Shown: positions 1,051 to 59,028 of the stretch, piece by piece
Layout of the letters: every line of letters begins with the position of its first letter
How positions within the stretch are numbered: the stretch's first letter is position 1
Virus record (IMG/VR): IMGVR_UViG_3300025913_000021
Location: 32,001-96,000 of that record
Reading direction: 5' to 3' (one strand)
Length of the DNA: 64,000 nucleotides
Source: a virus
Translations under genes and position numbers: made by a program
The notes under the pieces: generated by a model
What the model saw: only the letters and a program-made list of their open reading frames with translations
The model's database searches: none
Told to the model about the DNA's origin: nothing

Positions 1051-2415
1051 GTGAACGACACCATCGAGATCGACAACGAACTCGACGAACTCGCACGAGC
1101 GCTCGACGAGCTGGACGCGCAGGTCGCAACCGCGACTGTCGTCGAGGCTGAGGTCGAGGGCACCACCGACGACGACTACCTCGCACGGCTGGACCTGGAC
1201 GCGATCCTGGGTGGCGCGCTGCTGCTCAAGGGCGACCAGACGGCACGCACGTTCGTGAAGTCGAAGGAGATTTACCGCAACCCGGACGTGCTCGCGGCCG
1301 AGCGCGCTGCACGTGAGCGCAACCGCGACAAGCTGCGCAAGCGCATCGCTCGCCAGCGCGTGAAGCGGGCTGCGTTCGACAAGGAGCGCGAGGCCAAGCC
1401 GATCGACCAGGCGCGCATGAGCGCGTGCCTCCAGATGCTCGGCAACCTCTCGCACGTGATCGCGGACCTGACCATGCAGCGGTACAACCGGTTCCGCCGC
1501 ACGCTCGGGGACGTGATGGTCGAGGACATCGCGCAGGACGCGATCATCGCCATTGCCGAGGCCATGTCGCGCTCGGACACGGACCTGAGCGCGTACGCCG
1601 CGTGCTGCCTGTGGCTCAAGCGTGCGCCGCAACCGTTCGTGGCTGCCGACGGGCCGGAGGGCACGGGGCGACTGCTGGGCACGATCATCCGCGTGATCGG
1701 CACGACGATCATCGCGGTCTACCGCAAGTCCACGATCAAGACGTGGACGCTCGCGGTCGGACCCGAGGGCAAGGACGTGTGGGTGCGTCGCGACACGACG
1801 ATCGAGAGCCTCGACAAGCTCGCGACCATCGCGGCCAACACGTACACGGACGTGGACACGCTGATCGCCAAGCACAAGGCGAGCGGCAAGCCCAAGCAGA
1901 AGTCCACGCCCCCGGGCATGCGCGAGAAGCGCCTGTTCGCACGTGCGGTGATCGACTCGGCGATCGAGGCGCGTGGACTCGGCTGGCTGGCGACGATGCT
2001 CCTGGACGACGACCGCAGGCGCACGGACGGCAGCTTCAAGTGGACCGAGAACGCGGACACGGTGTGGGCTGGCTTCGGCTTCCCGCCGATGACCGTGGAC
2101 AGCCCGCGCCTGCGCGCTGACTTCGCACGTCAGGCGGTCAAGCTCGCGTTCGCGGACATGCCCGCGATCGTCAGCGAGGTCTACGGGCTGATCGACTCGC
2201 CCGAGCTGATGTGGTTCATCGACGTGTTCGGCGACAACGCCGCGCACGTGGTGGCGGGCAAGATCATCGCCAACCGCGCCAACCAGGAGCACCAGTGGGC
2301 GATCGACGGTGGGCGCTCGCTGGAGATGACCATGCGCATGATCGAGGACCCGGCCTACCGGCAGGACTCGCTCGCATGCATCATCGCGGCCGAGTTGGAC
2401 GATGACGACGAGTGA
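1051..2415 (+). CDS. large hypothetical protein with a sigma-70 region-2-like segment
   Basis: GTG start at 1051; RYNRFRRTLGDVMVEDIAQDAIIAIAE resembles the ECF sigma region 2 'EDxxQ(D/E)' helix; rest unassigned. Confidence 0.45.
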   Translation: MNDTIEIDNELDELARALDELDAQVATATVVEAEVEGTTDDDYLARLDLDAILGGALLLKGDQTARTFVKSKEIYRNPDVLAAERAARERNRDKLRKRIARQRVKRAAFDKEREAKPIDQARMSACLQMLGNLSHVIADLTMQRYNRFRRTLGDVMVEDIAQDAIIAIAEAMSRSDTDLSAYAACCLWLKRAPQPFVAADGPEGTGRLLGTIIRVIGTTIIAVYRKSTIKTWTLAVGPEGKDVWVRRDTTIESLDKLATIAANTYTDVDTLIAKHKASGKPKQKSTPPGMREKRLFARAVIDSAIEARGLGWLATMLLDDDRRRTDGSFKWTENADTVWAGFGFPPMTVDSPRLRADFARQAVKLAFADMPAIVSEVYGLIDSPELMWFIDVFGDNAAHVVAGKIIANRANQEHQWAIDGGRSLEMTMRMIEDPAYRQDSLACIIAAELDDDDE

Positions 2416-2591
2416 GCCCGTGGGTCGCGTCGTACCGCACGTGTGCCTGGTGTGGTCGCCAGTGCACCGTGCGGGACGACGAATGGGTGCACGTCCTGGA
2501 CAACGACCGCAGGTGTTGGCCCAACGTCCACACGACGGGCGAGTACGTGCGGTTCGCCACTCCGGAGTACCTGATCCGCGAGGAGCCTTAG
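2412..2591 (+). CDS. 59-aa Cys-rich protein ending YLIREEP (absent from ORF track)
   Basis: GTGA-coupled start; MSPWVASYRTCAWCGRQC...PEYLIREEP*. Confidence 0.75.
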   Translation: MSPWVASYRTCAWCGRQCTVRDDEWVHVLDNDRRCWPNVHTTGEYVRFATPEYLIREEP

Positions 2592-2938
2592 AGCGAGTCG
2601 TACCAGTCGAGAAACCGACGCGCGTCCGTAGCGCGTCGGTTTCCCAACCACGGAAGGAGGTCGCGAATCACATGCGCGATGTCATCACGACGACGCACGA
2701 CCCAAACCCACTGCGGCTTCCATCCCACCTGCCGACGCGGGAGCGCGTAGACGTAGCCAACCCCGGCGATCTCGTGCGCACGACGCACGGTGTCCTCGTC
2801 GGTCATCGGCAGGCGCAGGTGATAGCTCACCGAGCCATTGCGCGCGTCTGTCTGGCGATACAGGGTGCCTTCACCTTCGTACAGCCCGGCAAGCCAAGCG
2901 CACTGCGCGTCACGCGTCAGGCGTGCGGGTCGCGTCAC
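2588..2938 (-). CDS. single-motif LAGLIDADG homing endonuclease-like protein
   Basis: AWLAGLYEGEG motif followed by MTDEDTV and a beta-rich core. Confidence 0.8.
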   Translation of the reverse strand: MTRPARLTRDAQCAWLAGLYEGEGTLYRQTDARNGSVSYHLRLPMTDEDTVRRAHEIAGVGYVYALPRRQVGWKPQWVWVVRRRDDIAHVIRDLLPWLGNRRATDARRFLDWYDSL

Positions 2939-2954
2939 GCGTCACACGTTACGC

Positions 2955-3002
2955 GACGTTACGCGGCGCATCACGTGACGACTCGACGGGACAGCCGGAC
3001 AG
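2955..3002. repeat. diverged ~48-bp intergenic element, copy A
   Basis: gacgttacg...tcacgt...gccggacag shared with 16365-16410. Confidence 0.5.
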
Positions 3003-3144
3003 TTTCGCTATTACCCAGTGTCAGCCCAGCAACCCGCTGGGTACGCCGCACGCACCGTGCACGACGCACGGTGTGAGCGATCCATCCACCACGACGCGCA
3101 AGGCGCGCGTCAGGGCCTGGTGCCCATCACACGAGGAGGCGCAC

Positions 3145-3540
3145 ATGAGCGCATCGAACCCGACCAAGGCCGAACTCGCGGCGTTGGTCGCCCAGCAGGC
3201 GCAGGCCATCGCGGAGCTGCGTGGCCAGCTCGCCACGCCCGCCGCCGTCGCCGAGGTCGCCGCCGCCGCGACCGAGGTCGTCAAGCCCGAGAGCGCGAGC
3301 GACAAGCTCAAGGCGTTCGTCGAGAGCAACGGCCACCTGTTCGCGCGGGGCGGTCGCACGATCTGGACCATCGCGAACCTCAAGGCCGCGACCAAGGTGC
3401 TCCAGACCGGCGAGCCCACGATCCTGCCCGTCGAGGGCCTCGGCTCGCTCGCCAAGCGCGGCGTGTCCGGCATCGCGGTCGGCCGCGCGGACGACGGCAA
3501 GTCGATCATCACGCAGAACGTCTACACGCCCGAGGTCTGA
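3145..3540 (+). CDS. hypothetical protein
   Basis: GAGGAGG RBS before ATG 3145; coiled-coil-like N-terminus. Confidence 0.8.
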   Translation: MSASNPTKAELAALVAQQAQAIAELRGQLATPAAVAEVAAAATEVVKPESASDKLKAFVESNGHLFARGGRTIWTIANLKAATKVLQTGEPTILPVEGLGSLAKRGVSGIAVGRADDGKSIITQNVYTPEV

Positions 3541-5421: not shown

Positions 5422-5430
5422 GGAGGAGCC

Positions 5431-6216: not shown

Positions 6217-6393
6217 CCTAGCTCATGTTCCACGGATGTTCGCCGATCGAACATTCATGGTGCAATTGCTTCTCGCGTCCGTGATCGTTGTGGAGATCGC
6301 AGGCGTGGGAGTCCTGCTGCTGATAGGGCAGCGGCGGGACAGCACCACCTCGGCACGACATGGAGTCGAGCCGCAGACCCTCTGGAGGTCATC

Positions 6394-6699
6394 ATGTCCA
6401 ACACCCGCGTCGCCTACCGCTCCAGCACGGGCGCTCTCACCGGAGCCCAGCGTGCCGAGCAGCGCGAGAAGCGCATCCAGTTCGTGACGGCGCGCAACAC
6501 CGCGCTCATGGGCCAGCGCTCGCTGGCCGCGCACCGGCTCGCCGTGCTGCGCCACGACATCGCCAACGTGCACCGCGCGATCGTCAGCGGTGCCGAGCTG
6601 AGCGACGCGCAGATGGTCGAGCGCGTGCTGGAGCACGCCCGGGCCTCCGAGCGCAAGCTCGTGGACGAGATCACCCGCCTCAGCAGCAAGATCCGCTGA
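6394..6699 (+). CDS. hypothetical protein
   Basis: TGGAGG RBS. Confidence 0.7.
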   Translation: MSNTRVAYRSSTGALTGAQRAEQREKRIQFVTARNTALMGQRSLAAHRLAVLRHDIANVHRAIVSGAELSDAQMVERVLEHARASERKLVDEITRLSSKIR

Positions 6700-6722
6700 C
6701 CACCACCAACGAAGGGAACTAC

Positions 6723-7802
6723 ATGAAGCGAACCAGGGTCATCCCCGGCGTCATCGCGTTCGTCCTCGGCGTCCTGCTGCTGACGTTCGCGATGCCGGGC
6801 CTGTCCGACGCGCACACGCCGTCGGCCAAGGGCACGTCGTCCTGCAAGAACCCCAACGACGGGTCCTGGACGGCGAAGTTCACGGTCTACAACGACCCGA
6901 ACTCGTCCTACGGCCAGGCCACGATCAGCGGTACCGGCACCGGGCTCGACGGCCAGACCATCACGGCCGGTGGGCACATCGCGCTCGACATCGACGAGCC
7001 CAGCTCGGTCACCAGCGTGACCCTGAGCGGCACACTGACGTGGACGAAGGACAACTACTCCGCCCCGTTCAGCGCCACGGCCACGCCGCCCAACGGCTGC
7101 AAGCCGAGTGCCACCCAGACGGCCACCACGACCGTCACGGCCACGGCCACGGTGCCCGGCCCCACGGTGACGGTGCCCGGCCCGACGCAGACCGCGACGG
7201 TGGTCGTCAGCAACACGGTGACCGTGACCGACACGCCTCCGGCCAGCACCGTCACGGTGCCCGGCCCGACCTCGACGGTGATCGTGCCCGGCCCGACCGT
7301 GACGGTTACCAAGACCGACACCGCGACCGAGACCGCCACGGCGACCGAGACTCAGACGGCGACCGAGACGGCCACGGCCACGGAGACCGCCACGGAGACG
7401 GCTACCGCGACCGCGACGGAGACTGCGACCGAGACCCAGACGGCCACTGCCACGGTCACCGCCGTGCAGACCGTCACGGCCACGGAGACGGTCAACAACA
7501 CCGTCACGGCCACGGTGACCCAGACGGTCGCTGGCCCGGCCACCACGGTCACCGTGACGGCTTCGGGCGGCAAGGTCACCGAGACCAAGACGGAGACCGC
7601 CACGGTCACGCAGACGGCGACGGTGACCAAGTACCAGTGCCCGCCGAACTCGACCACGCACAACGGTCACACCACGTATCTGGCCTCCACGGGTCCGGCC
7701 AACGCTGGCTGGCTCAGCGCGGTCGGCGGTGGCCTGCTCGTGCTCGGCATGGCGCTGACGTTCTCGGGTCGTTCGCGTCGAACGAAGCCGAATCACGCCT
7801 GA
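6723..7802 (+). CDS. secreted Thr-rich cell-wall-anchored protein (LAXTG sortase signal)
   Basis: N-terminal signal peptide; TATAT/TETAT/TVTVPGP repeats; LASTG + hydrophobic helix + RSRRTK tail. Confidence 0.85.
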   Translation: MKRTRVIPGVIAFVLGVLLLTFAMPGLSDAHTPSAKGTSSCKNPNDGSWTAKFTVYNDPNSSYGQATISGTGTGLDGQTITAGGHIALDIDEPSSVTSVTLSGTLTWTKDNYSAPFSATATPPNGCKPSATQTATTTVTATATVPGPTVTVPGPTQTATVVVSNTVTVTDTPPASTVTVPGPTSTVIVPGPTVTVTKTDTATETATATETQTATETATATETATETATATATETATETQTATATVTAVQTVTATETVNNTVTATVTQTVAGPATTVTVTASGGKVTETKTETATVTQTATVTKYQCPPNSTTHNGHTTYLASTGPANAGWLSAVGGGLLVLGMALTFSGRSRRTKPNHA

Positions 7803-11164: not shown

Positions 11165-11533
11165 GTGACCACCTACGACCTGTCCACCGCCGTCCGTGAC
11201 GAGTGGGACGACGGATTCGAGGACTGCGACGACTGCGCAGAACCGTGGGAGCAGCCCAAGTGGGACTGCGGCTGCTCACGATGCAAGCCCGGCCTTCGCG
11301 ACTCGGAGCGCTGCATCTGTCCCGCCAATCTCGTCATCAACGACGACGGCACCCGCCAGTGGCACGGCACCCTCAAGGGCAATACGGACGGGTGTCCAAT
11401 TCACATCCAGCCTGGTTGCCCACAATGCGGCGAGACCTGGATCAAGTCTTGGCGCTGGCCGAAGTGCGACTCGTGCGGCTGGACCGCACCGATCATCGAA
11501 GAAGAACCATCCGCGCTCGACCTGAGCGCCTAG
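11165..11533 (+). CDS. Cys-rich protein with near-terminal IIEEEP
   Basis: Multiple CxxC; ...PIIEEEPSALDLSA. Confidence 0.65.
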   Translation: MTTYDLSTAVRDEWDDGFEDCDDCAEPWEQPKWDCGCSRCKPGLRDSERCICPANLVINDDGTRQWHGTLKGNTDGCPIHIQPGCPQCGETWIKSWRWPKCDSCGWTAPIIEEEPSALDLSA

Positions 11534-12445: not shown

Positions 12446-13243
12446 ATGCCCGCACCCGCACCCGGCAAGGCGACCATGAAGCTCACGCTCACCATCGGGA
12501 TGATCCCGCTGGCCCTGGACGTGTTCAGCGCGGTCGAGGAGTCCAACATCAGCCGATCCATGTACGTCAAGGACGGCGGCACCCTGCACAAGGTCGGCAT
12601 GACGACCTACGACACCGTGACCGGCAAGAACGTCGAGCGCAGCGACGTGATCAAGTGCGTCGAGACGCCCGAGGGTGACCTCGTGGAGGTCAGCGACGAC
12701 GAGTTGCAGGCCATGCTCGCCAGCGAGAACGGCACCTGCTCGTTCCTCGGCTTCCTGCCCCAGGACCAGTTCGACTACTCGACCGAGAAGCCGTACCAGG
12801 TGCGCCCGCAGCGGGCCAAGACGAAGCAGAACCCGTACGAGAAGCCGTTCGTGCTCATCATGGAAGCCATGCGCGAGACCAGCACCGTCGCGCTGCTCAG
12901 CTTCGTCAGCCGGGGCAAGACGCGCTACGCCGCGATCGACTGCGACGGCCACCTCGCCACGCTGCGCTTCGATGAGGAGGTGCGCGCCGAGCGGCCGATG
13001 CCGACCGTCACGCTCACCGCCCAGGAGAAGGCGATGGGCGTGTCGTTCATCGACAACTTCAAGGTGGACGAGGCCCCGGTGTTCCACGACGACGACTCCG
13101 AGCGCCTCATGCAGTTCGCCGTCCAGAAGGTCAAGACGCTGGCCGAGGGCGGCGAGGTCGTGATCCCGACGGTCGAGAGCGCGGCTCCGGCTGCCGGTGA
13201 CGACCTCATGGCGCTCATGGCCGCGAGCCTCCAGCAGAAGTGA
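12446..13243 (+). CDS. ku: Ku DNA end-binding protein
   Basis: LTIGMIPLALDVFSAV, DTVTGKNVERSDVIK, VSDDEL, LRFDEEVR and DLMALMAASL match the prokaryotic Ku core. Confidence 0.88.
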   Translation: MPAPAPGKATMKLTLTIGMIPLALDVFSAVEESNISRSMYVKDGGTLHKVGMTTYDTVTGKNVERSDVIKCVETPEGDLVEVSDDELQAMLASENGTCSFLGFLPQDQFDYSTEKPYQVRPQRAKTKQNPYEKPFVLIMEAMRETSTVALLSFVSRGKTRYAAIDCDGHLATLRFDEEVRAERPMPTVTLTAQEKAMGVSFIDNFKVDEAPVFHDDDSERLMQFAVQKVKTLAEGGEVVIPTVESAAPAAGDDLMALMAASLQQK

Positions 13244-13491
13244 CCGAGGAACGCAGCCCGGCCGCACTCAGGGCGTGGAAGCAGTCGCAACCACCGAGGC
13301 CAGCGAACCGATCGTTCGCGTCGCTGGCCGAGCTGGGCGCGTACCTCGACCAACTCGCGCCGGACGTGATCATCAAGTTCCACCTCGATCTCCTGGACAA
13401 CGCACGAGAGCGAGCGCTCTACACGATCGCCACGCTATTCGAGGGCACCTACACGGTCCACGTTCACGCCGAGGTCAAGGAGACACCCTGA
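13240..13491 (+). CDS. hypothetical protein ending EVKETP
   Basis: GTGA coupling. Confidence 0.6.
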   Translation: MTEERSPAALRAWKQSQPPRPANRSFASLAELGAYLDQLAPDVIIKFHLDLLDNARERALYTIATLFEGTYTVHVHAEVKETP

Positions 13492-15172: not shown

Positions 15173-16354
15173 TTGGGAAAGACCGCCTGGCGACCCGCAC
15201 CGTGGTTCGGACGGGGGAGCTGGCTGTTCACGGACGGAACCATCGAGCAGGCCCCCACGGTCGAGACCACGCCGTCGCAGCGGCGGTGGCGGATCAGCGG
15301 GACCGACATGTCCGTCCAGAAATACGACCTGCGCGACAAGATCGTCGCCTACATGCAGAACCGGGCGCGTGCGGCCGGGACGACGCTGTGGATGGAACTG
15401 ACGGACGACGAGGACAACGACGTGGCCCTGCACGAGAAGGTCGCGTGCGGCACCCACCAGAAGTTCTCGTTCGACAAGACGCCGCCCGTCAGCCTGGAGC
15501 GCGGGAAGATCCTCCCGATCGCCTTCGAATTCCGGCACGCCACCTACCCGCTGCGCGCGATGATCTGGGTGGTGCTCCGTACCGACGCGTACGGCGCGGC
15601 ATCGGTGTCCGCTGGCATCACCTACCGCGCCGGGGACACCATGCGCGCTGGCGATCACAGCGTGTCGCTCTACAACAAGGACCGTGGTTGGGCGCTGAAC
15701 CAGAAGTTCAAGCCCGACCTCGGATTCGAGTTGACCGAGACGCGCTTCGGTAGTCGGCCACGACAGGCGGCGGCGAAGTTCGTCGAGCTGTTGCAGCAGG
15801 CGCAGGAGGTCGATACGGTCCAGATCCCCGACGGTCGTGACCCGAAGGGACGCACGACGCTGGAGTTCCAGTTCGTGCGATCGAACTACACGCAGGACTT
15901 CTATCGCCAGTTGCTCGACATCGTGCAGTCGGGCCCGGCGATGGAGCGTTTGGCCGAGCATCTGAAAGGCATCCGCCGCGAGTTGAGCAACCTCGGCCTG
16001 GTCGCCCAGGACAAGGACGGCTTCGATCTCAACGCGCTGCTCAACGGCAAGCTCTCCGAGTTCCAGGTGCAGCTCGTCCCGCAAGAGCCGAGCGACACCG
16101 ACAAGGACGGCCACGGTCGCGACCCGCACCACAAGGTCCACCTGGACCTGGCGCACGGCGTGTTCGCCGTGAGCTGCAACCGGCACGACCTGGAGGAGGT
16201 CGCGGAGCAGTGGAACATCGCCAAGTTCAAGGCGGAGGTGACGGGCGAGACCGATGCGCTGCTGGCCTACGCTGAGGCGTACAACGACCCAGCCGAACGT
16301 GCTCGGATCAAGAAGATCGTCAACGAGCGACGGCTCCCCGCGCGTGGCGCGTGA
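15173..16354 (+). CDS. hypothetical protein (393 aa)
   Basis: CCCTGGAGG RBS, TTG start, coding-like codon bias. Confidence 0.75.
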   Translation: MGKTAWRPAPWFGRGSWLFTDGTIEQAPTVETTPSQRRWRISGTDMSVQKYDLRDKIVAYMQNRARAAGTTLWMELTDDEDNDVALHEKVACGTHQKFSFDKTPPVSLERGKILPIAFEFRHATYPLRAMIWVVLRTDAYGAASVSAGITYRAGDTMRAGDHSVSLYNKDRGWALNQKFKPDLGFELTETRFGSRPRQAAAKFVELLQQAQEVDTVQIPDGRDPKGRTTLEFQFVRSNYTQDFYRQLLDIVQSGPAMERLAEHLKGIRRELSNLGLVAQDKDGFDLNALLNGKLSEFQVQLVPQEPSDTDKDGHGRDPHHKVHLDLAHGVFAVSCNRHDLEEVAEQWNIAKFKAEVTGETDALLAYAEAYNDPAERARIKKIVNERRLPARGA

Positions 16355-16364
16355 CGCATGACGT

Positions 16365-16410
16365 GACGTTACGTGCACCTCACGTAGCGACGCGAGGCAC
16401 CGCCGGACAG
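16365..16410. repeat. diverged intergenic element, copy B
   Basis: Aligns with 2955-3002. Confidence 0.5.
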
Positions 16411-16514
16411 AAATCCCACTTTCCACTGGACCCAAATCGTCAGACCCAAGCCGTACCATCCAACCCGAACGTTCGAGACTTCACCCGTCTCCCTGAGTCC
16501 CTGGAGGACACACC

Positions 16515-17765: not shown

Positions 17766-17983
17766 GCAGGATGGTCATGGTCGCGCTGACGGACGAGCAG
17801 GTAGCTGTTCTCCGTCAGCGCGGCCTCACCTCCGACGAGGAGATCCGCCAGGTCATGCTCAAGGGCATGGGCACGCTGTTCGACCTCTACGACGTGACCA
17901 ACGACGGCCAGCTCGTGGTTCTTCGGCCAGGCGCGAAGGTCCGTGGCCGATTCCGCCGCATCACCCTCGACATCGACACCTGA
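17762..17983 (+). CDS. small hypothetical protein between the AAA+ and VWA genes
   Basis: ATGA coupling. Confidence 0.65.
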   Translation: MSRMVMVALTDEQVAVLRQRGLTSDEEIRQVMLKGMGTLFDLYDVTNDGQLVVLRPGAKVRGRFRRITLDIDT

Positions 17984-18023
17984 CACGACGGCGAGCACCC
18001 GTCTCTAGCCCTGGAGGCTACGC

Positions 18024-23013: not shown

Positions 23014-23014
23014 C

Positions 23015-23323: not shown

Positions 23324-23589
23324 CGATGACACTGCCTCCGGCGATGCCCGCCTGGCAGCCCCAGGACAAGCGCCCACTGCCTGATGCGATCGGCACGGGC
23401 ACGCAGTACGTCAAGGAGTGCGCCAACAGCCAGCGCGACAACGGCTACCACTTCCCGAAGTGCGGCGTGCTGATGTCACCGGACGAGCGCTCGGACTGGT
23501 GCGCGTCCTGCGGTCTGCGGATCTTCTTCCACCCGGCTTCGCAGAACTGGTACAGCGCCACGTGGCACCTGATCATCGAGGAACCATGA
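23320..23589 (+). CDS. small Cys protein ending HLIIEEP
   Basis: Coupled start; C-terminal tag. Confidence 0.7.
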   Translation: MTMTLPPAMPAWQPQDKRPLPDAIGTGTQYVKECANSQRDNGYHFPKCGVLMSPDERSDWCASCGLRIFFHPASQNWYSATWHLIIEEP

Positions 23590-44704: not shown

Positions 44705-45688
44705 ATGACTCAAGTCGCACGTGGTGCATTCGGCACCGCCAAGGCGAAAGCCTTGAACTTCCAGCCGATGCCCACCATGAAGGAGTACCTCGACCAGCTC
44801 GCCGCCGAGGGTCGCAGCCCCAGCCACATTCGTCTGTGCCGGGCGGCGCTGCACCACCTCAACGAGCACCTGCGCAGCCAGGGCGTGCTCGTCCCGCAGG
44901 ACATCCGCCGCGAGCACCTGATCCTGTTCCAGGGCTGGGTGAACAACCAGGCGTGGCAGCCGAGCTACCGGGTCGAGCTGCTCAAGAAGGTCAAGCACTG
45001 GCTCAAGTGGCTGGTGCAGGTCCGCTACATCCCGGACACCCCGTGGATCGCCATTCGGACGGGCGTCACTATCAAGCAGCCGAAGCCGCTCAGCAACGAC
45101 GAGCTGGAGGAGCTGTTCGCTCGCCACCGGCAGGACGCCTTCTCCGTCACGCCGTTCACTTACCACCGCCGCGAGGTCATCCTCGTCATGCTCTACGGCT
45201 GGGGCCTGCGCATCCATGAACTGTGCGCCCTGGACGTGGCCGACCTGGCGGTCGAGAAGCAGTTCGTCCGGGCGATCAACAAGGGCGGCAGCTTCAAGAC
45301 GCTGCCCTACCTCGACGAGATCAAGAACTCGTGGCGGCGCTACGAGGGCTGGCGGGTGCGCTACGCACCGAAGGACCAGGAGGCCGCGTTCATCAATCGG
45401 GGCGGCAGTCGGATGACGACCGGGGACGTGTGGGAGATCGTGCACGACCTCGGCGAGCGCTCCGGCGTGCGCGTCAACCCGCACCGCTTCCGGGACACCT
45501 GCGCGACCACGCTGCTCGACTCGGACGTGGCTGTGGAGCGCGTGGCGGTCATCCTCGGCCACAAGAACATCAAGACCACGCTCGGCTACGGCAAGGTCAA
45601 CGACCACAAGGTCGCCGAGGCGCTGGACGGTGCGATGAGCACCCAGATCAACGGACTGATCTTCGGACGAACGAAGGACATCGCATGA
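44705..45688 (+). CDS. XerC/D-like tyrosine recombinase
   Basis: GLRIHEL (R), NKGG (K), HRFR (HxxR), LGHKNIKTTLGY (H, Y); N-terminal core-binding region. Confidence 0.92.
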   Translation: MTQVARGAFGTAKAKALNFQPMPTMKEYLDQLAAEGRSPSHIRLCRAALHHLNEHLRSQGVLVPQDIRREHLILFQGWVNNQAWQPSYRVELLKKVKHWLKWLVQVRYIPDTPWIAIRTGVTIKQPKPLSNDELEELFARHRQDAFSVTPFTYHRREVILVMLYGWGLRIHELCALDVADLAVEKQFVRAINKGGSFKTLPYLDEIKNSWRRYEGWRVRYAPKDQEAAFINRGGSRMTTGDVWEIVHDLGERSGVRVNPHRFRDTCATTLLDSDVAVERVAVILGHKNIKTTLGYGKVNDHKVAEALDGAMSTQINGLIFGRTKDIA

Positions 45689-47506
45689 GCTACTGCCGCT
45701 TCGGCTGGGGACCGAACAACGAGTTCCCCGGCACACCCGAGGCCGAGGCCGCTGGTGCCTCGGACCTCTACCTGATCGGGACTTCGCGCATCTACGACCC
45801 GGAGACCGGCAAGGAGACCCACGGCATCGAGTGCTGCGGCTGCATCCTCACCCCCGTGGGCTTCCCGTTCTTCACCGAACTGCCCAAGATCCTCGCCCAT
45901 TTGGACGAGCATCGGAAAGCTGGCCACACCGTGCACCCGTGGGTGCAGCCCGACATCGAGGCCGACTTCCAGGACGGGATCTACAGTCCGCCCTGGATCG
46001 CAGGGAAGCTGGGGCGCACGTGAGCCACGTCGTCTACAAGTACCCGTTCGACGAGTTCCTGTTCAGCGTCAGCGACGGTGCGATGGTGGTTCCGGAGGGT
46101 CACGTCGTGCACGTCGGAGTGCAGCACCTCAGCGACAGCCTGCCGACGGTGTGGGTGCAGCACGACAAGGACAACCACGCGCAGATGACACTGGTGGTCA
46201 TCGGCACGGGTCGCGAGTTCGAGCCCCTGGGTATCGAGCACGTCGGCTCCGTCGTCTGCGCCAACGGCCAGCTCGTGTGGCACGTCTACCGGAGGCTCAC
46301 GTGACCGAGACCGACCGGCCCGGTTCGCAGTACCGCCACAAGCTGCCCAAGGACCAGAGGAACCTCAGCACGACGGAGCTGGCGCGCCGTGCTGGGGTCG
46401 GGGTCGGCGTGTCGATCATGCGCTGCGGGCCGTACTGGGACGTGGTGGCCCGGCTCGACGCCAAGGGCAAGTTGGAGTACATCGTCACCGACTGCTCCGT
46501 ACAGGGCCGCAAGCCGCTACTCGTGCATGGTCCGGTCTCACGCGACGCTGCGATCAAGTGGGCGAAGGAGACCGCGCTGCTGTTCATGTCGGTGCGTGGC
46601 GGTCACATCGACGACGACCTGATGGGGCACCGATGATCGTCGAGATCGTCGAGGCCGGGATGATCGTCGCGGCCGGTGCCTTGGGCAACGTCATGGGCTG
46701 GACGCGCGGCCGGGCCGAGCGCAACATCATCAACCTGTTCACGACCGGCCAGGCCGAGAACCTCTGGTGCCTGTGCGGCCACGCGATGTCCATGCACGCG
46801 AAAGGCACTGACTCGTGCAACGATCACGCCCTCAATGATCAAGGGAAGATGATCGTCACCTACAAGACCGGCGTGACCACGCAGTACATGCGCTGCCCGT
46901 GCATGAAGTTCGTCGGCGATCCCAGCAGGAATCCGACGCCCGTTCAAACCCGGAAGGACGTGCTCGACCTTGGCCAGTAGCGACATCACCGGAGACCCGA
47001 AGTTCCAGGAGTTCGCCGAGAGGGCGATCACCAAACTGGTGCCGATGGTGGACGAGTCGGCGTACTGCGTGGCGCTCGTGCCGCGCAAGCCCGAGGACTT
47101 CAACGACATCAAGTTCTGCGTCGAACTCGGCATGATGATCATGATGAACAAGCCCATCGTGTTCGTCATCGCGCCGGGCACCAAGGTCCCCGAGAAGCTG
47201 ATCAAGGTGGCCGACCGGATCATCGAGCTGGACACCAACGACGCGAAGTTCATGGCGACCCTGGAGGAGACGCTCCAGGAGCTGACCGTCGAGCTGGGGC
47301 TGTGATGGCCCGCCCGTCGGTGGACGTGCAGGCCAAGAACCTGGCCGAGTTCATGGCCGGGATCTTCGCGGGCTGGGTCGAGAGCAACTTCGTGCCGCAG
47401 TACCTGGAGGGCGAGACGAAGGTTGAACGAACGGGCATCAGTTCCTTCACCATGACCACCCGCTCCGGCACCGTGCTGCGCTTCGATGTGACGGCGGTCG
47501 AGGCTG

Positions 47507-47728
47507 GTGAGTGACGGCGGCGAGGAGCTGCTGACCGGCGTGATCGCCGGGTCGCTCTCGCAGCTCACAGGCGTCAGCTTCCCTATCAAGATCAAGGCCG
47601 TGAACGTCCTCACCGACGCGAACGGCGACTACCGACGGGTGGTCGAGGTCGAAATGGCCAGCGGGACGTACTACGTCTCAGTCACGCCATACGATCCCGA
47701 GACCCCCGTCATCGAGGAGGAACCGTGA
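47507..47728 (+). CDS. small protein ending PVIEEEP
   Basis: C-terminal tag. Confidence 0.7.
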   Translation: MSDGGEELLTGVIAGSLSQLTGVSFPIKIKAVNVLTDANGDYRRVVEVEMASGTYYVSVTPYDPETPVIEEEP

Positions 47729-48601: not shown

Positions 48602-48882
48602 TGACCGAGCGGAAGCGGCGGCGACTCACCGACTGGGACGCGATCCTGCGCAACCTCCGCCTCGGTGACCTGCGCTACCGCTACTACACGAACACCGATC
48701 GGATCGCGCTCTATACGACCGTCCGTCTGTATGAGGGCGGGGACTACCTGGCTGCCCTGGTCGAGCGAGACGGGACGGTCCTCATGCGAGCCGAACGGCC
48801 ACTGGCCCGCGAGGTGCGCGACCTGTGCCGCATGTGGTCGAAGGGCTTCGCTGTGGCGTACGAGATCAAGGAGGAGCCGTGA
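48601..48882 (+). CDS. hypothetical protein ending YEIKEEP
   Basis: TGATG coupling; C-terminal tag. Confidence 0.7.
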   Translation: MTERKRRRLTDWDAILRNLRLGDLRYRYYTNTDRIALYTTVRLYEGGDYLAALVERDGTVLMRAERPLAREVRDLCRMWSKGFAVAYEIKEEP

Positions 48883-49601: not shown

Positions 49602-50516
49602 ATGACCACCACACCGACTGACACCGACGCCACCACCGAAACGAACGAGTGGCAGTTTCCGATCGAGGCCGTGCTGGAGTACCACAAGGCCCGCATCGCA
49701 GGCAACGAGGACCACGTGCCCGCGATGGTCGAGGCGTGGGTCGAGGGCGAGGGCCCGGTCTGGAGCGCGATGGTCGCCGACGTGGGCGAGTCCAGCCCGC
49801 GTGACTGCGCCCTGTTCGCCGCGTCGATCATGTCCAGGATCACCGGGGCCGACTACATCCTGTTCTGCGTGGACACCCACATGAGCCACTCTCAGGTGAA
49901 TCCGACGACGGGCAAGCCGTGGGCACCGGGCGAAATGCAGCGCATGTGCGACGAGGAGGGGTACTGCGACACCGGCAACATCCGCGACAACCTCATGGTC
50001 GCGATCGTGCGGCGCTCCGACGCGAAGATCTACATGACCGGCATCCCGTACCACTTCCACAAGGGCGAGGTCATGTACTTCGACCCGCAGCCGCCGATGG
50101 ACGAGTGGAACGACGAGGGCGGCGTGAAGCAGATGGGCGGCACCATCCCCGACACCCTGCGCCAGGTCATACAGCAGCCGCCGCTCAGCGAGCAGCTCAC
50201 GCAGATGGGTGCGTACGAGGCGATCGGCTTCGACGGTCCGTCGAACATCACCCGCCTGCACCAGATTCTGGCGGGCATCCGTGTCATGGGGAAGGTCGCC
50301 GTGGACACCGGGTGCGAGGGTCCGATGTTCCTGCACATGATCCCGACGAGCACCGACGAGGAGCGTCAGATCATGGACGACTTCTCCAAGCGCGACGACA
50401 TCACCAACCTGGCCGAGTACGGCGCGGAGGAGCCTGAGCCCTCGCTCGCGGAACAGATGGGCGCTGCTCCCACCACGATCGAGGAGGAGCCCGGTGACGA
50501 ACCAGCCCAGCCATGA
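49602..50516 (+). CDS. hypothetical protein with near-terminal TTIEEEP
   Basis: ATG after a G-rich RBS. Confidence 0.7.
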   Translation: MTTTPTDTDATTETNEWQFPIEAVLEYHKARIAGNEDHVPAMVEAWVEGEGPVWSAMVADVGESSPRDCALFAASIMSRITGADYILFCVDTHMSHSQVNPTTGKPWAPGEMQRMCDEEGYCDTGNIRDNLMVAIVRRSDAKIYMTGIPYHFHKGEVMYFDPQPPMDEWNDEGGVKQMGGTIPDTLRQVIQQPPLSEQLTQMGAYEAIGFDGPSNITRLHQILAGIRVMGKVAVDTGCEGPMFLHMIPTSTDEERQIMDDFSKRDDITNLAEYGAEEPEPSLAEQMGAAPTTIEEEPGDEPAQP

Positions 50517-51384: not shown

Positions 51385-52443
51385 ATGCCCGCTACCGACG
51401 CACTTCACGTCCGCACGCAGGTTGCGGAGCAGCTACAGGGTCAGACCTTCCGCACGATCATCGACGCCTTCGTGGGTGATGACTTCAATCGGATGCGCGG
51501 CCAGAAGCAGAACGTCCACGACACCAGAAGCACGGCCGGGGCGATCAATGCGAACCAGGCCCCGGCGTTCCGCGCGGAGGCGTTCGCCAACGCGATGTCC
51601 ATCGCCGAGACCTTCTACCTCAGCCCGGAAATGCACGCGATCTGCCAGGACGCCAGCCAGGCCGAGGACTTCCCCGAGGACGAGACGATCCTGCGCGAGG
51701 ACCCGCCGAGCGAGGCCGGGTTCCTGTTCCTGCCCGCGCGCTTCCGCATGATGGAACTGCGCGGCCGACTGATGATCGCGCACGCCGTGGTGTGGATCAA
51801 CAACAAGGTCTGGTGGCTCTGCGACCGGCGTGACCCGGACGACGAAATGAACGTTGAGCTGAATGCGGCGTACGGCGGACACGGTCAGGTTGGCCTGCCA
51901 CGCTACGACCTCATGGCGGTGAGCAGCTTCAAGTGGGGTGAGCCCATGCCGAAGATGATCACCTTCGAGAAGGGCGTGCTGCCGACCGATGCCAAGGTCG
52001 AGTTCAAGGACGTGCCGTTCGAGGGTGGCACCCGGCGCATCCTGTTCACCGACGCGCTCGTCCATCCCGGCCTGAGCAAGCCGCAGGCCACGGTGTCGCC
52101 CGAGCTGCGGTTCCTGCTCACCGTCTGGCGCATGATGCAGCAGACGATCACCGACGTGGTGGACGAGTACCCGGACAACAAGGCCGTCCGTCGCTACGCC
52201 GACCGCGCCGGGATCAAGGACCAGCGCATCCGCGTGATTCAGCTCCGTCGCCGCGAGAGCCACCAGACCGGCCAGGGCTCGCCGCTGACCGTGCGCTTCG
52301 TCGTGCGTGGCCACTGGCGACGCATCTGGTGCGGCCCGGCCGAGAACCGCTACCAGCGCGCGATCTGGATCCACCCGCACCTCAAGGGTCCGGAGGGTGC
52401 CCCGCTGATCCACCGCGAGAAGATCAACGCCCTGGTGCGATGA
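51385..52443 (+). CDS. hypothetical protein with C-terminal VRGHWR motif
   Basis: GGAGG RBS; FVVRGHWRRIWCG...WIHPHLKGP. Confidence 0.75.
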   Translation: MPATDALHVRTQVAEQLQGQTFRTIIDAFVGDDFNRMRGQKQNVHDTRSTAGAINANQAPAFRAEAFANAMSIAETFYLSPEMHAICQDASQAEDFPEDETILREDPPSEAGFLFLPARFRMMELRGRLMIAHAVVWINNKVWWLCDRRDPDDEMNVELNAAYGGHGQVGLPRYDLMAVSSFKWGEPMPKMITFEKGVLPTDAKVEFKDVPFEGGTRRILFTDALVHPGLSKPQATVSPELRFLLTVWRMMQQTITDVVDEYPDNKAVRRYADRAGIKDQRIRVIQLRRRESHQTGQGSPLTVRFVVRGHWRRIWCGPAENRYQRAIWIHPHLKGPEGAPLIHREKINALVR

Positions 52444-52655
52444 ACGGACACGTGGTCGTTTTGATCGTGGCCGTCGTGGGACTCGTGACGGTCTGTGTGT
52501 TCATGTTCCTCATGGTGCGCGCGAGCAGGAACCTACGGATCTCGGCCGAGAACCTCCAGCATGCGGCCGAGGACTATCGCGACTCGATGGACGACCTGAA
52601 CACCTTCCTGTTCCGGTCGGTCAACGGCGAGCACACCGTGGAGGAGGAGCCCTAG
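52440..52655 (+). CDS. single-TM protein ending HTVEEEP
   Basis: N-terminal TM helix; C-terminal tag. Confidence 0.7.
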   Translation: MNGHVVVLIVAVVGLVTVCVFMFLMVRASRNLRISAENLQHAAEDYRDSMDDLNTFLFRSVNGEHTVEEEP

Positions 52656-53407: not shown

Positions 53408-53602
53408 ATGTTCTACTGCAAGGACTGCGCCGACATCACCGGCTGGCCCGAGCTCGGCTTCTCGGTCGGCCGGTGCGAAATGTGCGAGCGGGGCAGCATG
53501 CTGTGCTCCGACGTGCCGAGCAAGTACCTCTCCATCCCGACCCAGGAAATGCACACGCGCATCCAAGGTCTCAACCCACATCGGATCCAGGAGGAGCCGT
53601 GA
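53408..53602 (+). CDS. small Zn-binding protein ending HRIQEEP
   Basis: CKDC...CEMC; C-terminal tag. Confidence 0.7.
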   Translation: MFYCKDCADITGWPELGFSVGRCEMCERGSMLCSDVPSKYLSIPTQEMHTRIQGLNPHRIQEEP

Positions 53603-54991: not shown

Positions 54992-56297
54992 CCCGCTGCC
55001 AGTGCGGCTGCGAGAAGGCCGAGCACGAGAACCGAGGCTCGTGCGCCACGTGCGGCCCGAAGCGCTGCCCTGAGTTCCGAGGAAGGTGGTTGCCATGACA
55101 CTGCCTGACAAGCTGCTCGGCCCCGAGGGCTACGACCCGATGTGGGACGACGTGCGCAAGGTCGGCGACACCGCGCTGTACTTCGACCGCCAGGGCCAGC
55201 CGATGACCCTGCGCCAGTGGGTGACCGGCATCGAAACGGACGAGTATCGCTTTCTCAAGCGCACCCGCGTGGGCGAGAGCATGATCGTCACCGCCTGGAA
55301 CGGCGTCAACGACGGCTGGCCCGACCCCGAGGCGCAGATCTTCGGCACGATCGAAATCCGTGGCCAGGGCGAGAACGTGACCTATCACGACGAGGAGACC
55401 GACAGCACCGAGGCTGCGGCCCTCGCCACCCATGATCGCCGGGTGGAGGAACTGAGGAAGGAACTGAACCCGTGAACGACGCGACCGAACATCCGAACTG
55501 GACCCCGCAGGACGACACCACCGCCTGCCCGTACTGCGGCAAGCCCAACAACGCCTGGTCGTCCACCGACGGCGCGGCCGTGGAGCGTCCGCAGGCTGGT
55601 TCGCTGAGCCTGTGCTTCATGTGCGGCGGGCTGTGCGTCTACGAGGAGACCGACGGCAAGCTCTCGCTGCGCAAGACCACCGCCGAGGAGGCGAAGGCAT
55701 GGGAGAGCGACCCGTTGGTCGTGCGCACCCGCAAGATCATCAGCTACACGGAGAGCCCGAACCTGGCTAGCAGCTTCCTGCTGATGGACCAGTGATCGAC
55801 CCGAACATCACGACGGCCGACGGCAAGCCGGTCGCCTTCCACGACTTCAAGCCCGAGCAGTTCCCGTTCCGCGTCCAGTTCATCGACAACGACACCGAGG
55901 AACTGCTGCACGAGGTCATCGTGCGCGGGATCAGCCACATGGAGGTCCCCGGCTTCGCACCGCGTCGGGTGCGGGTCGAGATCACCTACCCGAACGGGTT
56001 GCAGTACGTCGAGGGACCACCAGGATCGGGACTGAGCGAAATGCGCCAGGTCCCACCGCCGCGCCTGTGAGCTATCGCGACACCGAGTGCGATGCGTGCG
56101 GCAAGCCGTGGGACATCCACCTGATCATGGGCTGTGTGCACGAGCACTCCGGTCACGTGCGGTTCTGTCGAGAGCACCGCTCTCGGTTGGTCGCCACTGC
56201 CGATCAGTACCTGTGCTGCACCCCCTGCATCAACGATCACCCGTGCCGCACGCACGTCGTGCGCGTCATTGAAGATCGGTCCCAGGCCGCGTGACCC

Positions 56298-56325
56298 TTG
56301 CGCTGTTCGGCTGCGCGTCTATATT
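56298..56325 (+). promoter_or_regulatory. putative sigma-A promoter, possibly giving a leaderless mRNA
   Basis: TTGCGC-N16-TATATT, 7 nt before ATG 56333; spacer contains TGTTCGG. Confidence 0.5.
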
Positions 56326-56332
56326 CCGTGTT

Positions 56333-57112
56333 ATGGCGGTGGGAAAGCATCAGCTAACGGACGGTGAACTCGACGAGCAGTGGGCCCTCCTCAAGGCCGG
56401 AGGACCACGCGCTTCGACCGCCAGGGACCGTCTCGTGCTGCACTGGCGTCCGTTCGTCTGCTCGATCGCCAACCACATCGGCACCCGACTCCCGGCCCAC
56501 GTGGACAACGAGGACCTGATCAGCTACGGGATGATCGGGCTCCTGGACGCCATCGAGAAGTTCGACCCCGGCCGTGGCCTCCGCTTCAAGACCTACGCCG
56601 GGAAACGGATCAGCGGCCAAATCTACGACGAGCTGCGCAAGCTCGACTGGGTTCCGCGCTCGGTGCACAGCCAGGTCAAGGAGGTCACCGAGACGGTGAT
56701 CGACCTGGAGCGCAGGCTCCAGCGTCCCGTCTCCGATGCCGAGGTGGCCAAGGCTGCCGGACTGAGCCGCGAACAGGTCGCTGACGCCCGCAGCGAGCAG
56801 TCCTACATCAGCGTCATGGCGCTGGACGCCCTGCTGGACAACAACGTCGGGGACGAGACCCTCTCGCTGGCCAGCCAGCTCTACGACCGCACGCAGTCAC
56901 CCGACCAGGACTTCGAGGTCGAGGGCATCAAGGCTCTGATCGCCGGGGCTATGGCCAACCTGGGTGAGCGCGAGGCGCTGGTGCTGGCGCTGTACTACAT
57001 CGAGGGGCTGACGCTCTCCGACATCGGTGGGCTGCTCGGCGTCACTGAGTCTCGCGTGTGCCAGATGCATACCCGCGCGATGGTCGCAGTCCGCGAACGT
57101 CTCGCCGCCTGA
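56333..57112 (+). CDS. RNA polymerase sigma factor, FliA/WhiG family
   Basis: EDLISYGMIGLLDAIEKFDP, RISGQIYDELRKLDWVPRSV, region 4 LGVTESRVCQMHTRA. Confidence 0.92.
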   Translation: MAVGKHQLTDGELDEQWALLKAGGPRASTARDRLVLHWRPFVCSIANHIGTRLPAHVDNEDLISYGMIGLLDAIEKFDPGRGLRFKTYAGKRISGQIYDELRKLDWVPRSVHSQVKEVTETVIDLERRLQRPVSDAEVAKAAGLSREQVADARSEQSYISVMALDALLDNNVGDETLSLASQLYDRTQSPDQDFEVEGIKALIAGAMANLGEREALVLALYYIEGLTLSDIGGLLGVTESRVCQMHTRAMVAVRERLAA

Positions 57113-57658: not shown

Positions 57659-57931
57659 GGCGACCTCCTCTGGTAGTCCCATCGGCCGTTGCCCCTTCGC
57701 GTCTGACGAGCTAATGTTCGGCTTGTGATAAGTCGCTAACCTGAACCCCAGGTGGTGCCGCGCTGAATGCCGCCGCACCCACACGCATCAGTACCCGCAG
57801 GATCGCAACCGTATCGGTGAGCGCGCCTGGTGCTACGTGATCAGCGAGGAACCCGAGACCCCCGATGAGTGGTCGGCGTTCCGAGATCAGGTCTACCGAG
57901 TCGGCTGTCGAGGCCCGCGCGAGCGTGCAGC

Positions 57932-58231
57932 ATGAGCGAGCCGACCGAGGTCGAGAAGCTCCAGCGCGAGATCGACTCACTGCGCGACCAGCTCGCCGAC
58001 GCCAACGCCAGAGTGCAAACGCTGAGGTGGCAGAACCAAGCACTGGAATCGGTTCACCTCTCGCCCGAGCAGAAGGCACGCTCGCACCAGAACGCCGAGG
58101 TCTACTACTGGATCGCCAAGTGCCAGCGGCAGCGACGGGCGATCAACCACATCCAGCGCAAGGGTTGGTACCCACCGGAGTACGTGATCCGCGAGGAGGA
58201 GACTCCGTGGGAGCTGGATCAGACCGCGTAG
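57932..58231 (+). CDS. coiled-coil protein with near-terminal YVIREEE
   Basis: Heptad pattern; tag-like segment. Confidence 0.65.
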   Translation: MSEPTEVEKLQREIDSLRDQLADANARVQTLRWQNQALESVHLSPEQKARSHQNAEVYYWIAKCQRQRRAINHIQRKGWYPPEYVIREEETPWELDQTA

Positions 58232-58305
58232 ATCGCCACGACCAGCAGGGACATGCCGAGCACGACTAGGACGACCCCGAGCTTCTGATCATGTCCGAGC
58301 GCCAT
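58219..58305 (-). CDS. 28-aa hydrophobic peptide
   Basis: MALGHDQKLGVVLVVLGMSLLVVAIYAV fills the intergenic gap. Confidence 0.45.
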   Translation of the reverse strand: MALGHDQKLGVVLVVLGMSLLVVAIYAV

Positions 58306-58387
58306 CGGGCGAGCCGATCACGGATTCGGCCGCTCGTCCAATCGGAACGTCTTTCGGCTCAGCTCAAGGTCGCCTAGGTTGTTCGGC

Positions 58388-58774
58388 ATGCCCGCGCCCG
58401 AGGAGCCCGATCCGCTCGACGACATCAGCACTGCTGCGCTCAGGGCGGCGCTGGAGCGTCGGGGGTATGTCACCCTCACGGCGAAGTCCTACAAGGCCGC
58501 ACAGCGCCGCCAGGGGATCGCGCAGAGCCGCATGGCGTGGGCCGAACGAGAGGCCGAGAGCGCTCGGAGCTGGGCCTACGACTGCCTGGCCGAGGAGCGT
58601 CGTCTGCACGCCCGACTGAACGAGATCATCGCCCTGGCGACGCAGCACGGGATGACCACGGAGGATCTCGTCCGCTTCAACGAGCAGCTCGGACTTCGGG
58701 GCGCTCTGCCACCGACCACCGTCGTGCCCGAACTCCCAGGGGCCGTCACTCATCGCATCCCGGAGCAGCCGTGA
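58388..58774 (+). CDS. hypothetical protein ending HRIPEQP
   Basis: C-terminal tag. Confidence 0.7.
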   Translation: MPAPEEPDPLDDISTAALRAALERRGYVTLTAKSYKAAQRRQGIAQSRMAWAEREAESARSWAYDCLAEERRLHARLNEIIALATQHGMTTEDLVRFNEQLGLRGALPPTTVVPELPGAVTHRIPEQP

Positions 58775-59028
58775 CCCTGCCACAGGACGACGCCGACCTG
58801 TCCCCGCAAGTGCTGCGGGAGTACGCGATCCAATGCCTGCGCCAGGCTGGGACCTTCTCGTACCTGCCGTACACCCCCGCAGCGCCGGTCGCGCAGCCGG
58901 GCTTCACTGCACCGCAGCCGCTCCCGACACCGGATGCGCGCCCGAGCGGCATCCTGTACGCGCTCCAGGGCCTGCTGGCCATGCAGATCGCGAACTCGAT
59001 CACGCACGTCATCGAGGAGCACCCATAG
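58771..59028 (+). CDS. hypothetical protein ending HVIEEHP
   Basis: GTGA coupling; last + strand gene of the array. Confidence 0.7.
   Translation: MTLPQDDADLSPQVLREYAIQCLRQAGTFSYLPYTPAAPVAQPGFTAPQPLPTPDARPSGILYALQGLLAMQIANSITHVIEEHP

Follow-up and report, generated by a model that had tools for sequence, protein, structure and literature searches.

Why should dozens of otherwise unrelated proteins of one phage end in the same few residues? The question is raised by IMG/VR record IMGVR_UViG_3300025913_000021, the 149-kb genome of an uncultured tailed phage from soil, of which a 64,000-nucleotide stretch (the window, to which the feature coordinates below refer) had been read earlier. The host is probably a member of the Actinomycetota, matches to sigma-28 being Actinomycetota-like. 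A cultured relative was not found: a megablast search with 20 kb of the genome gave no match, no prophage copy was found in GTDB genomes, and terminase and capsid reached no farther than GX15bay and Basilisk-like Bacillus phages. The head is of the HK97 type with a YonB-type major capsid protein, and the phage encodes Ku, a tRNA-Pro and a Sak4-like annealing protein. RNA-library contigs overlap parts of the tag region, an overlap that cannot demonstrate transcription.

The original prediction placed a terminal tag on 19 proteins of the window and near-terminal copies on six others. All were found at those positions with the residues described, and a recount again gave EEP endings in 12 and Y/H/F at position -7 in 16 of the 19. 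The shared tag is thus real, but about half of its carriers had been covered. Across the whole genome, [YHF]-x-I-x-E-[EL]-P occurs in 48 of the 191 genes of the accessory arm (genome 10-91 kb, both strands) and in none of the 80 other genes (Fisher P = 1e-8; P = 2e-5 if small genes only are counted). It is C-terminal in every carrier; 34 of the 48 copies have the strict form immediately 5' of the stop, and the remainder are variants or lie ≤14 residues from it. A six-frame scan of the whole genome for [YHF]-x-[IV]-x-E-x-P gave 38 matches, 29 abutting a stop and 4 more within 12 residues of one. Carriers are clustered (22 adjacent pairs versus 11.8 in shuffles), most densely at genome 15.9-18.8 kb, upstream of the window, where 11 of 12 consecutive genes are tagged. 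The copies in the window are:

2568-2591 (+), terminal tag, orphan of 40-59 aa, start uncertain
11489-11533 (+), near-terminal tag with 7-residue extension, Cys-rich orphan 11165-11533
13468-13491 (+), degenerate terminal tag, gene following Ku
20515-20538 (+), terminal tag on g113 (20200-20538), kept in close orthologues; sister-lineage homologues carry a helix tag
22990-23013 (+), terminal tag, two-CxxC protein 22627-23013, opening a run of seven consecutive carriers
23300-23323 (+), terminal tag, zinc-finger-like protein 23015-23323
23566-23589 (+), terminal tag, CxxC orphan 23320-23589
24039-24062 (+), terminal tag, zinc-finger-like protein 23586-24062
24239-24262 (+), terminal tag, 67-aa orphan 24059-24262
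24649-24693 (+), near-terminal tag with acidic D-L-x-D-L-L extension, WGR-domain protein 24259-24693
25080-25118 (+), near-terminal tag, CxxC protein 24759-25118
30131-30154 (+), terminal tag, 243-aa methyltransferase-like protein 29423-30154; linker length varies among orthologues, tag always terminal
30532-30555 (+), terminal tag, gene 30154-30555 (133 aa), probably the one that matched DUF7448
31364-31390 (+), near-terminal tag, 69-aa orphan
34170-34193 (+), terminal tag, zinc-finger-like protein 33873-34193
34661-34684 (+), terminal tag, 105-aa protein 34367-34684, without a coupled downstream start
47705-47728 (+), terminal tag, 73-aa orphan
48859-48882 (+), terminal tag, 93-aa orphan
50472-50516 (+), near-terminal tag, 304-aa protein 49602-50516
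52632-52655 (+), terminal tag, protein 52440-52655 with an N-terminal transmembrane helix
52848-52871 (+), terminal tag, 71-aa CxxC orphan
53579-53602 (+), terminal tag, 64-aa double-CxxC protein g190 (53408-53602); G003 homologue with helix tag
57834-57854 (+), high-scoring copy; the open frame around it has 68 codons and no ATG/GTG/TTG and may be what is left of a carrier gene
58181-58231 (+), near-terminal variant tag (extra E-T before P), 99-aa coiled-coil-like orphan
58751-58774 (+), terminal tag, gene 58388-58774, with a weak second copy 11 residues upstream
59005-59028 (+), terminal tag, gene 58771-59028, the final accessory-arm gene, followed by two tRNA genes

Apart from the tag, the carriers are unrelated, as had been claimed. 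With the tag removed, no two of their bodies matched at E < 0.001, and in Pfam and PHROG each family was matched by one carrier at most; the carriers do not share the C-terminal domain of a single paralogous family. Most are orphans; zinc-finger, SLOG, WGR and membrane proteins are among the carriers, and the tag is used alike on soluble and membrane-anchored proteins, three of which have an N-terminal transmembrane helix. The glycine-rich motif behind the label 'methyltransferase-like' for 29423-30154 is visible, but Pfam did not confirm the assignment. Two exact DNA patterns of the tag, both narrow, each matched only the same two related contigs among 2.9 million viral contigs, which argues against a generic high-GC effect. 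A literature search with few subscription papers within its reach found no account of unrelated phage proteins that have a C-terminal tag in common.

It is the peptide that is under selection, and not the DNA. Ile, Glu, Pro and stop codons vary among copies, as first described, and codon choice at positions -7 to -3 is the same as genome usage. Same-codon pairs among tags number 1,118 versus 1,174 expected, so the tags have not been homogenised as DNA. The Glu codon at -2 is GAA in 11 of 28 cases versus an 11% background, that is, displaced away from a GGAG site. Across 18 orthologue pairs there are 20 synonymous changes and no correctly aligned replacement at I/E/P, against 37 replacements in the six upstream linker codons; linker length varies between orthologues and the tag remains terminal. 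In a chance test conditioned on the ending E-x-P-stop (36 called genes), Ile or Val still occupies -5 in 34 (P = 6e-30) and Y/H/F occupies -7 in 29 (P = 7e-25).

Relatives of the phage confirm the tag and show that its first definition was too narrow. Judged from their gene ends, the core common to the lineage (A) is hydrophobic-x-I-x-E-[ED], and Pro-stop is a local feature of the sub-lineage containing this phage. Variants are present in G002, G005, L008, L138 and L144 and, in the deep-branching L278, on 18 of 49 genes; most copies in G002, L008, L138 and L278 have no Pro-stop and lie at variable distances from the stop. A sister lineage (B) carries, on orthologous cargo, an acidic helix, [ST]-D-E-E-[VI]-x-x-A-I-x-S-I, found on 9 genes of G003 (P = 4e-11), 11 of G004 (P = 1e-13; about 20 counting variants) and 6 of 39 in L277. 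Its invariant Ser is encoded by AGC (8), TCC (9) or TCT (1), and the helix may resemble those of FliM/CheZ or Pup. Tags are swapped between homologous cargo proteins (g113 versus G003_117 and G004_060; g190 versus G003_111), and tag type tracks the Ku and g108 trees. Against a common label, some homologous pairs (g122, g123 and g025) are tagged on one side only. Together with codon use, the orthologue substitutions and the failure of a ribosome-binding-site null, the exchange of tags upholds the original proposal of a peptide-level label; the lineage-wide core, the local Pro-stop and the sister-lineage helix are new here. An EM motif search was weak on G002 and G003, and gapped k-mer counts and PWMs were used in its place. 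G022-G024, G026, G027, G037 and G038, several of them partial genomes, yielded no C-terminal motif.

The tag probably serves as a docking label that differs between lineages and has a single reader. It would be a short linear motif, selected at the peptide level and attached to small accessory proteins of many unrelated kinds, with an extended hydrophobic-x-I-x-E-E form in lineage A (Pro-stop being added in this phage) and a putative N-capped acidic amphipathic helix in lineage B. If, as we infer, a single partner binds it, all carriers would be treated alike by that partner, whether it holds them, delivers them, remodels them or lets them go. Large phages have mostly small orphan genes without a functional handle, and such a tag would group a quarter of the accessory genes into one pathway, serve as a single bait for finding it and, through the sister-lineage tag on homologous cargo, supply a built-in specificity control. 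Short terminal motifs with a single reader are familiar from ssrA, the EEVD tails of Hsp70/90 with TPR proteins, the clamp-binding tails of T4, and the MIM1/MIM2 motifs of ESCRT-III, whose reader Vps4 recognises both helical and extended types, a pair that lineages B and A may parallel. Those tails differ in sequence and sit on functionally related proteins, whereas the phage carriers are mostly orphans, and the phage tag apparently needs no free C-terminus. The type VII secretion signal, Y-x-x-x-[DE] on a helix after a helical hairpin, has a spacing matched as Y-x-x-x-E in about half of the copies; the carriers, however, are of zinc-finger, SLOG, WGR and membrane types, that signal does not include the near-invariant Ile, and the spacing is absent in lineage B.

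The leading candidate for the reader, proposed tentatively, is a phage module at 15173-19973:

15173-16354 (+), g108, orphan 393-aa protein, candidate reader or adaptor
16515-17765 (+), MoxR AAA+ ATPase (bpMoxR, RavA-like), which may form part of the reader
18024-19973 (+), VWA protein, MIDAS residues intact, which may likewise form part of the reader

We guess that the VWA MIDAS, its metal site perhaps completed by an acidic residue of the peptide, or g108 might grip the acidic tag and the ATPase free the cargo. The phage encodes a pair of the kind known from NorQ-NorD (PMC13036017), CbbQ-CbbO (PMC4660213), ternary systems (PMC7159879) and a jumbo-phage pair (PMC7824862), plus a third, variable gene. 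Capture of a substrate peptide via the MIDAS has been proposed as a family-wide mechanism (PMC7159879), with which the acidity of both phage tags would be consistent. Known pairs, however, have one dedicated target each, and the reading of a tag shared by dozens of proteins is not known from any of them. Tag and MoxR/VWA pair occur together in G000, G003, G004, L138, L192 and L277, but G023, G024 and the complete genome G026 have the pair without a C-terminal motif, so MoxR/VWA is not sufficient. Conversely, L278 has abundant tags and g108 with no MoxR/VWA within 10 kb in the part of the contig covered, and the pair may not be necessary; no relative of L278 that could bear on MoxR loss was found in IMG/VR. 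The g108 family is fast-evolving (164 clusters at 50% identity) and usually lies immediately upstream of MoxR. It is found in the tag-bearing loci that cover its position and was undetected in three tag-less relatives, a correlation amounting to one or two evolutionary events among kin; L279, L142 and L143 have g108 and no clear tag, so g108 is not sufficient either. Its model (pLDDT 67) has no clear fold, with clamp matches at TM about 0.1 and a WGR-like match at Z about 5, and a profile search gave a weak TATA-binding-protein match (E = 0.015). The VWA loops flanking the MIDAS differ between lineages A and B, which may simply be phylogeny. It is conceivable that these phages run their own protein sorting, in which g108 and MoxR/VWA recognise the tag of their lineage on one accessory protein in four, tag and reader can be swapped together, and an ORF that is newly acquired or newly born joins by adding seven to twelve residues. 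If the reader is this module, a role would be found for an ATPase pair common in large phages and archaeal viruses, where only an assembly role has been proposed. A portable 7-12-residue tag with its cognate reader could, besides, serve as a tool for actinobacteria.

The reader may almost equally well belong to the host, as a protease or chaperone, rather than to the phage module. Docking to Clp, Lon, FtsH, a proteasome adaptor, a chaperone or another hub could time the degradation of early proteins, stabilise them or provide a bulk decoy, a possibility that fits a tag placed terminally after a variable linker on soluble and membrane-anchored carriers alike. No phage gene is both necessary and sufficient for the tag, and lineages with different tags may have different hosts. 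Acidic C-termini, however, usually oppose Clp recognition, and extensions of 0-14 residues beyond the tag are tolerated, in contrast to ssrA and other degrons that are read from the end.

Loading into or onto the virion is unlikely. The tag would then be a C-terminal counterpart of T4's capsid-targeting sequence or of an encapsulin cargo-loading peptide, and the carriers would be packed into or displayed on the HK97-type head and delivered at infection. In T4, varied internal proteins are packaged via a 10-residue peptide and the protease cuts after L/I-x-E, a step that the I-x-E of the tag recalls, and the sequence on IPI-III is likewise one short terminal peptide on divergent, poorly conserved accessory proteins (PMC9026906). 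That sequence is N-terminal, removed by gp21 and confined to few genes; the phage tag is C-terminal in all carriers rather than an N-terminal propeptide, gives way to a different tag in lineage B, and occurs on 48 cargo types, far above the T4 set. The three membrane-anchored carriers disfavour loading, and no prohead protease was recognised by Pfam among head-module genes. Encapsulin peptides (PMC7355545) are closer in form, being usually C-terminal, portable and placed after a linker on unrelated proteins, as the tag is, and they bind an HK97-fold shell to which the YonB-type capsid protein might correspond. Encapsulins, though, are cellular compartments with few enzyme cargoes and a known binding site. 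A weak lead is the post-capsid gene g262, with an internal Y-[VI]-[IV]-[QR]-E in about 60 lineage A homologues, absent in lineage B. Its model (pLDDT 82) matches uncharacterised siphovirus proteins; in that fold the segment forms an internal strand, and chance alone would give about one match of this kind.

Still less probable is a nascent-peptide device, in which Glu-Pro-stop slows termination, as in E. coli YbeL, leading to tmRNA tagging or tuned coupling to the next gene. Tunnel-acting motifs require fixed spacing, and the distance of the tag to the stop is variable. C-terminal Pro does slow termination and induce tmRNA tagging (YbeL, TnaC; PMC3082878), 34 copies end in Pro-stop, 22 of these overlap the next start, and the phage encodes its own tRNA-Pro. 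Roughly one copy in four here and the majority in G002, L008, L138 and L278 nevertheless run past Pro or lack it before the stop, and the terminal Pro is absent in lineage B. Because Pro-stop is only local, termination arrest, one of the functions first suggested, is not supported as the general one; in this sub-lineage it could have arisen secondarily.

A translated recombination junction for cassette shuffling is very improbable. Carrier clustering would fit, and the likeness of about 20 bp between tags could aid their spread via the Sak4-like protein, but identical codons are not in excess, the reading frame is strict, AGC and TCC interchange in lineage B, and orthologues drift synonymously; the reading may explain spread and not maintenance.

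The remaining possibility, a by-product of a Shine-Dalgarno site and stop/start overlap, is the least credible of all: although 22 of the 34 terminal copies overlap with the start of the following gene and Pro is CCG or CCA at all 18 four-base overlaps, so that codon choice at -1 is shaped by overlap, 40 untagged genes with overlap and a Shine-Dalgarno core have I/V(-5) in 7, aromatic/His(-7) in 3, E(-3) in 7 and P(-1) in 7, the full motif stands in 12 tagged genes without overlap, the Glu pair in L278 is often written with GAA, and the tag DNA pattern occurs at gene ends 36 times in frame and once out of frame, so that the conditioned null refutes a frame-independent junction conserved as DNA and tied to a downstream start, as the original prediction had argued. 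Gene ends in L279 are rich in E-E/Q-A, as expected from Shine-Dalgarno overlap alone.

The C-terminal peptide [YHF]-x-I-x-E-[EL]-P (tag A) is a real, strongly selected protein label and apparently an undescribed one; a literature search on such shared C-terminal phage tags found no paper. All copies listed in the original prediction are present as described, and in a six-frame scan 29 of 38 motif matches lie directly before a stop codon. The whole genome has 48 carrier genes: the strict terminal form occurs in 34, and in the others the tag is a variant or lies ≤14 residues from the end. Carriers make up 48 of the 191 genes in the two accessory arms (genome 10-91 kb, both strands) versus 0 of 80 other genes (P = 1e-8), and are clustered along the genome. 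They are small (median 93 amino acids), enriched in CxxC (20/46 versus 24/110, P = 0.01) and unrelated to one another in their bodies; three have an N-terminal transmembrane helix. Named domains are few (SLOG/YspA, WGR and DUF7448, one each), and the recognisable enzymes of the arms (Ku, ligase, RuvB-like ATPase, integrase, sigma factor, MoxR and VWA) are untagged. Proline is the commonest last residue in the genome (53/271 genes). Also noted were:

Window 57834-57935 (+): high-scoring tag copy 26 codons before the stop of a 68-codon open frame without ATG, GTG or TTG, perhaps a decayed carrier gene
Window 20957-21874 (+): g115, with an internal tag-like segment at residue 226, 73 residues before the C-terminus; three close orthologues retain it, and g115 may be a tagged gene that fused to another domain
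L006:2928-3290 (-): tagged g019, probable source of a weak CBM5/12 carbohydrate-binding match, which would be unexpected on a protein with a cytoplasmic label
Window 59238-59400 (-): tRNA-Pro(TGG) and tRNA-Trp, where two transcription directions meet

Exact DNA patterns of the tag matched only two relatives among 2.9 million viral contigs scanned. At the protein level, the relatives that form lineage A with this phage (genomes G002 and G005; contigs L008, L138, L144 and L191-193) carry hydrophobic-x-I-x-E-E, often extended by a short acidic-hydrophobic stretch and in many cases lacking proline. Contig L278, a deep lineage A member in both the Ku (support 0.87) and g108 (support 0.94) trees, bears the tag on 18 of its 49 genes, where the usual ending is I-E-E-D-hydrophobic. 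Proline-stop is therefore a local elaboration. No terminal motif of any kind was seen in the more distant relatives examined, including the complete 104-kb genome G026.

A new result is that sister lineages place two tags of different structure on homologous cargo. In lineage B, the near-complete genomes G003 and G004 (terminase identity 62-66%) have 0 and 1 terminal matches to tag A. Their tag is an N-capped acidic helix, [ST]-D-E-E-[VI]-x-x-A-I-x-S-I, placed 4-14 residues from the end; the strict pattern occurs in 9 genes of G003 (P = 4e-11) and 11 of G004 (P = 1e-13), rising to ~20 in G004 with variants, and in 6 of 39 genes on contig L277. Its serine codons are about equally AGC and TCN, so a DNA motif cannot explain it. 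Tag type switches between lineages on two cargo families, g113 and g190, and three others are tagged on one lineage's side only. Lineage B has two further flavours, T-D-E-E-V-[KR]-E-[LV]-F-G-L and E-E-x-A-x-[VI]-x-x-S-L-G-[VI]; the latter may resemble the CheY-binding tail of CheZ. Genes with these flavours are:

G004 34916-35877
G004 39044-39560
G004 45648-45992
L277:9160
L277:20595

Tag A probably serves as a docking label with a single partner as its reader. Its anatomy is that of such a label: a short terminal peptide that follows a linker of variable length, does not depend on the cargo, is specific to the lineage and can be exchanged. Within this reading, we tentatively propose a three-gene module as the best phage candidate for the reader:

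Window 15173-19973: orphan g108 + MoxR + VWA, with VWA MIDAS residues intact
Window 15173-16354 (+): g108

MoxR/VWA pairs are proposed to act in a common way, with MIDAS capturing a peptide and ATP then driving its release (PMC7159879), and the module would treat the tag peptide likewise; both tags are acidic. Usually encoded directly before MoxR, g108 adds a third, undescribed component to phage MoxR/VWA. Its family is closed and very divergent (164 clusters at 50% identity), without a Pfam match, and has invariant His320 and Cys335 and weak TBP-like and WGR-like resemblances. It was not detected in three tag-less relatives that retain MoxR and VWA. Against the module, MoxR/VWA occurs without tags in three relatives, L278 has tags and g108 but no adjacent MoxR/VWA, and g108 occurs without clear tags in contigs L279, L142 and L143; co-occurrence of tag, g108 and MoxR-VWA rests on very few independent events. 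In L279, which shows no tag, MoxR is split into two frames (6245-7509) by a frameshift or assembly error. Folded models identified no binding site on g108 or on the post-capsid protein g262 (L005:13352-13963 (-), genome 142852-143463). Only in lineage A does g262 have a Y-x-I-x-E strand in its interior, whereas every lineage has a g262 helix similar to a lineage B tag variant; the fold is common to uncharacterised siphovirus proteins.

Docking to a host protein instead is nearly as likely as the module. Docking for virion loading is improbable. A single short terminal peptide shared by dissimilar proteins is a known principle, seen in the T4 capsid-targeting sequence (PMC9026906) and the encapsulin cargo-loading peptide (PMC7355545), and different tags on homologous cargo are the new element; shell binding by the phage tag would be putative. 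Identity with the capsid-targeting sequence was rejected, as the tag is C-terminal and Pfam recognised no protease among the head-module genes.

Alternatives to docking fare worse. Termination stalling, raised in the original prediction, is very unlikely; it fails as a general function given the proline-free lineage A copies, and a general Pro-stop arrest peptide (compared with PMC3082878) was rejected. A mere cassette junction is highly improbable. Coupling shapes the proline codon at four-base overlaps, so the junction is dual-use, yet the motif is held at the protein level. In 18 pairs of orthologues, drawn from three related contigs, the tags show 20 synonymous changes at I, E and P and no correctly aligned replacement, versus 37 replacements, somewhat inflated by linker indels, in the six codons upstream; linker length varies and the tag remains terminal. 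Codons at -7 to -3 match genome usage, identity among copies is not in excess, and E(-2) is shifted to GAA. The Shine-Dalgarno (SD) by-product can be dismissed almost outright: genes ending E-x-P-stop have I/V at -5 in 34/36 and Y/H/F at -7 in 29/36, versus 7/40 and 3/40 in untagged genes with an overlap and SD core, and the 12 tagged genes without an overlapping start keep the whole motif. These enrichments, the strict frame (36 in-frame copies of the DNA pattern at gene ends versus one out of frame) and the synonymous orthologue changes support the peptide-level label originally predicted.

The virus record (149,260 bp, 66% G+C; window at 32001-96000) has 271 genes, called with our own codon-model caller in agreement with the collection's calls where both exist. 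Its genes for terminase, ribonucleotide reductase, primase-helicase, a Sak4-like protein and tail parts mark it as a tailed phage. One gene has the length of a tape-measure gene (2,427 codons), and the major capsid protein is of YonB type, related to Basilisk-like phages. No close cultured relative was found in the collection searched; phage DNA occurs in rhizosphere metagenomes from several studies. The host is probably actinobacterial, judging from the phage sigma-28, whose nearest relatives come from Acidimicrobiia and other Actinomycetota. Other genes noticed are:

Window 56291-57112 (+): sigma-28 (FliA/WhiG type), also in G003 and G004; top cellular matches Acidimicrobiia, ~46%
L277:20680-21108: Lsr2-like nucleoid protein encoded in lineage B; this fits an actinobacterial host
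Window 12446-13243 and 32481-33491 (+): Ku and an ATP-dependent DNA ligase, which form an NHEJ-like pair retained throughout the family
Window 37680-38783 (+): RuvB-like AAA+ ATPase
Window 39864-40631 (+): second VWA protein, TerF-like type
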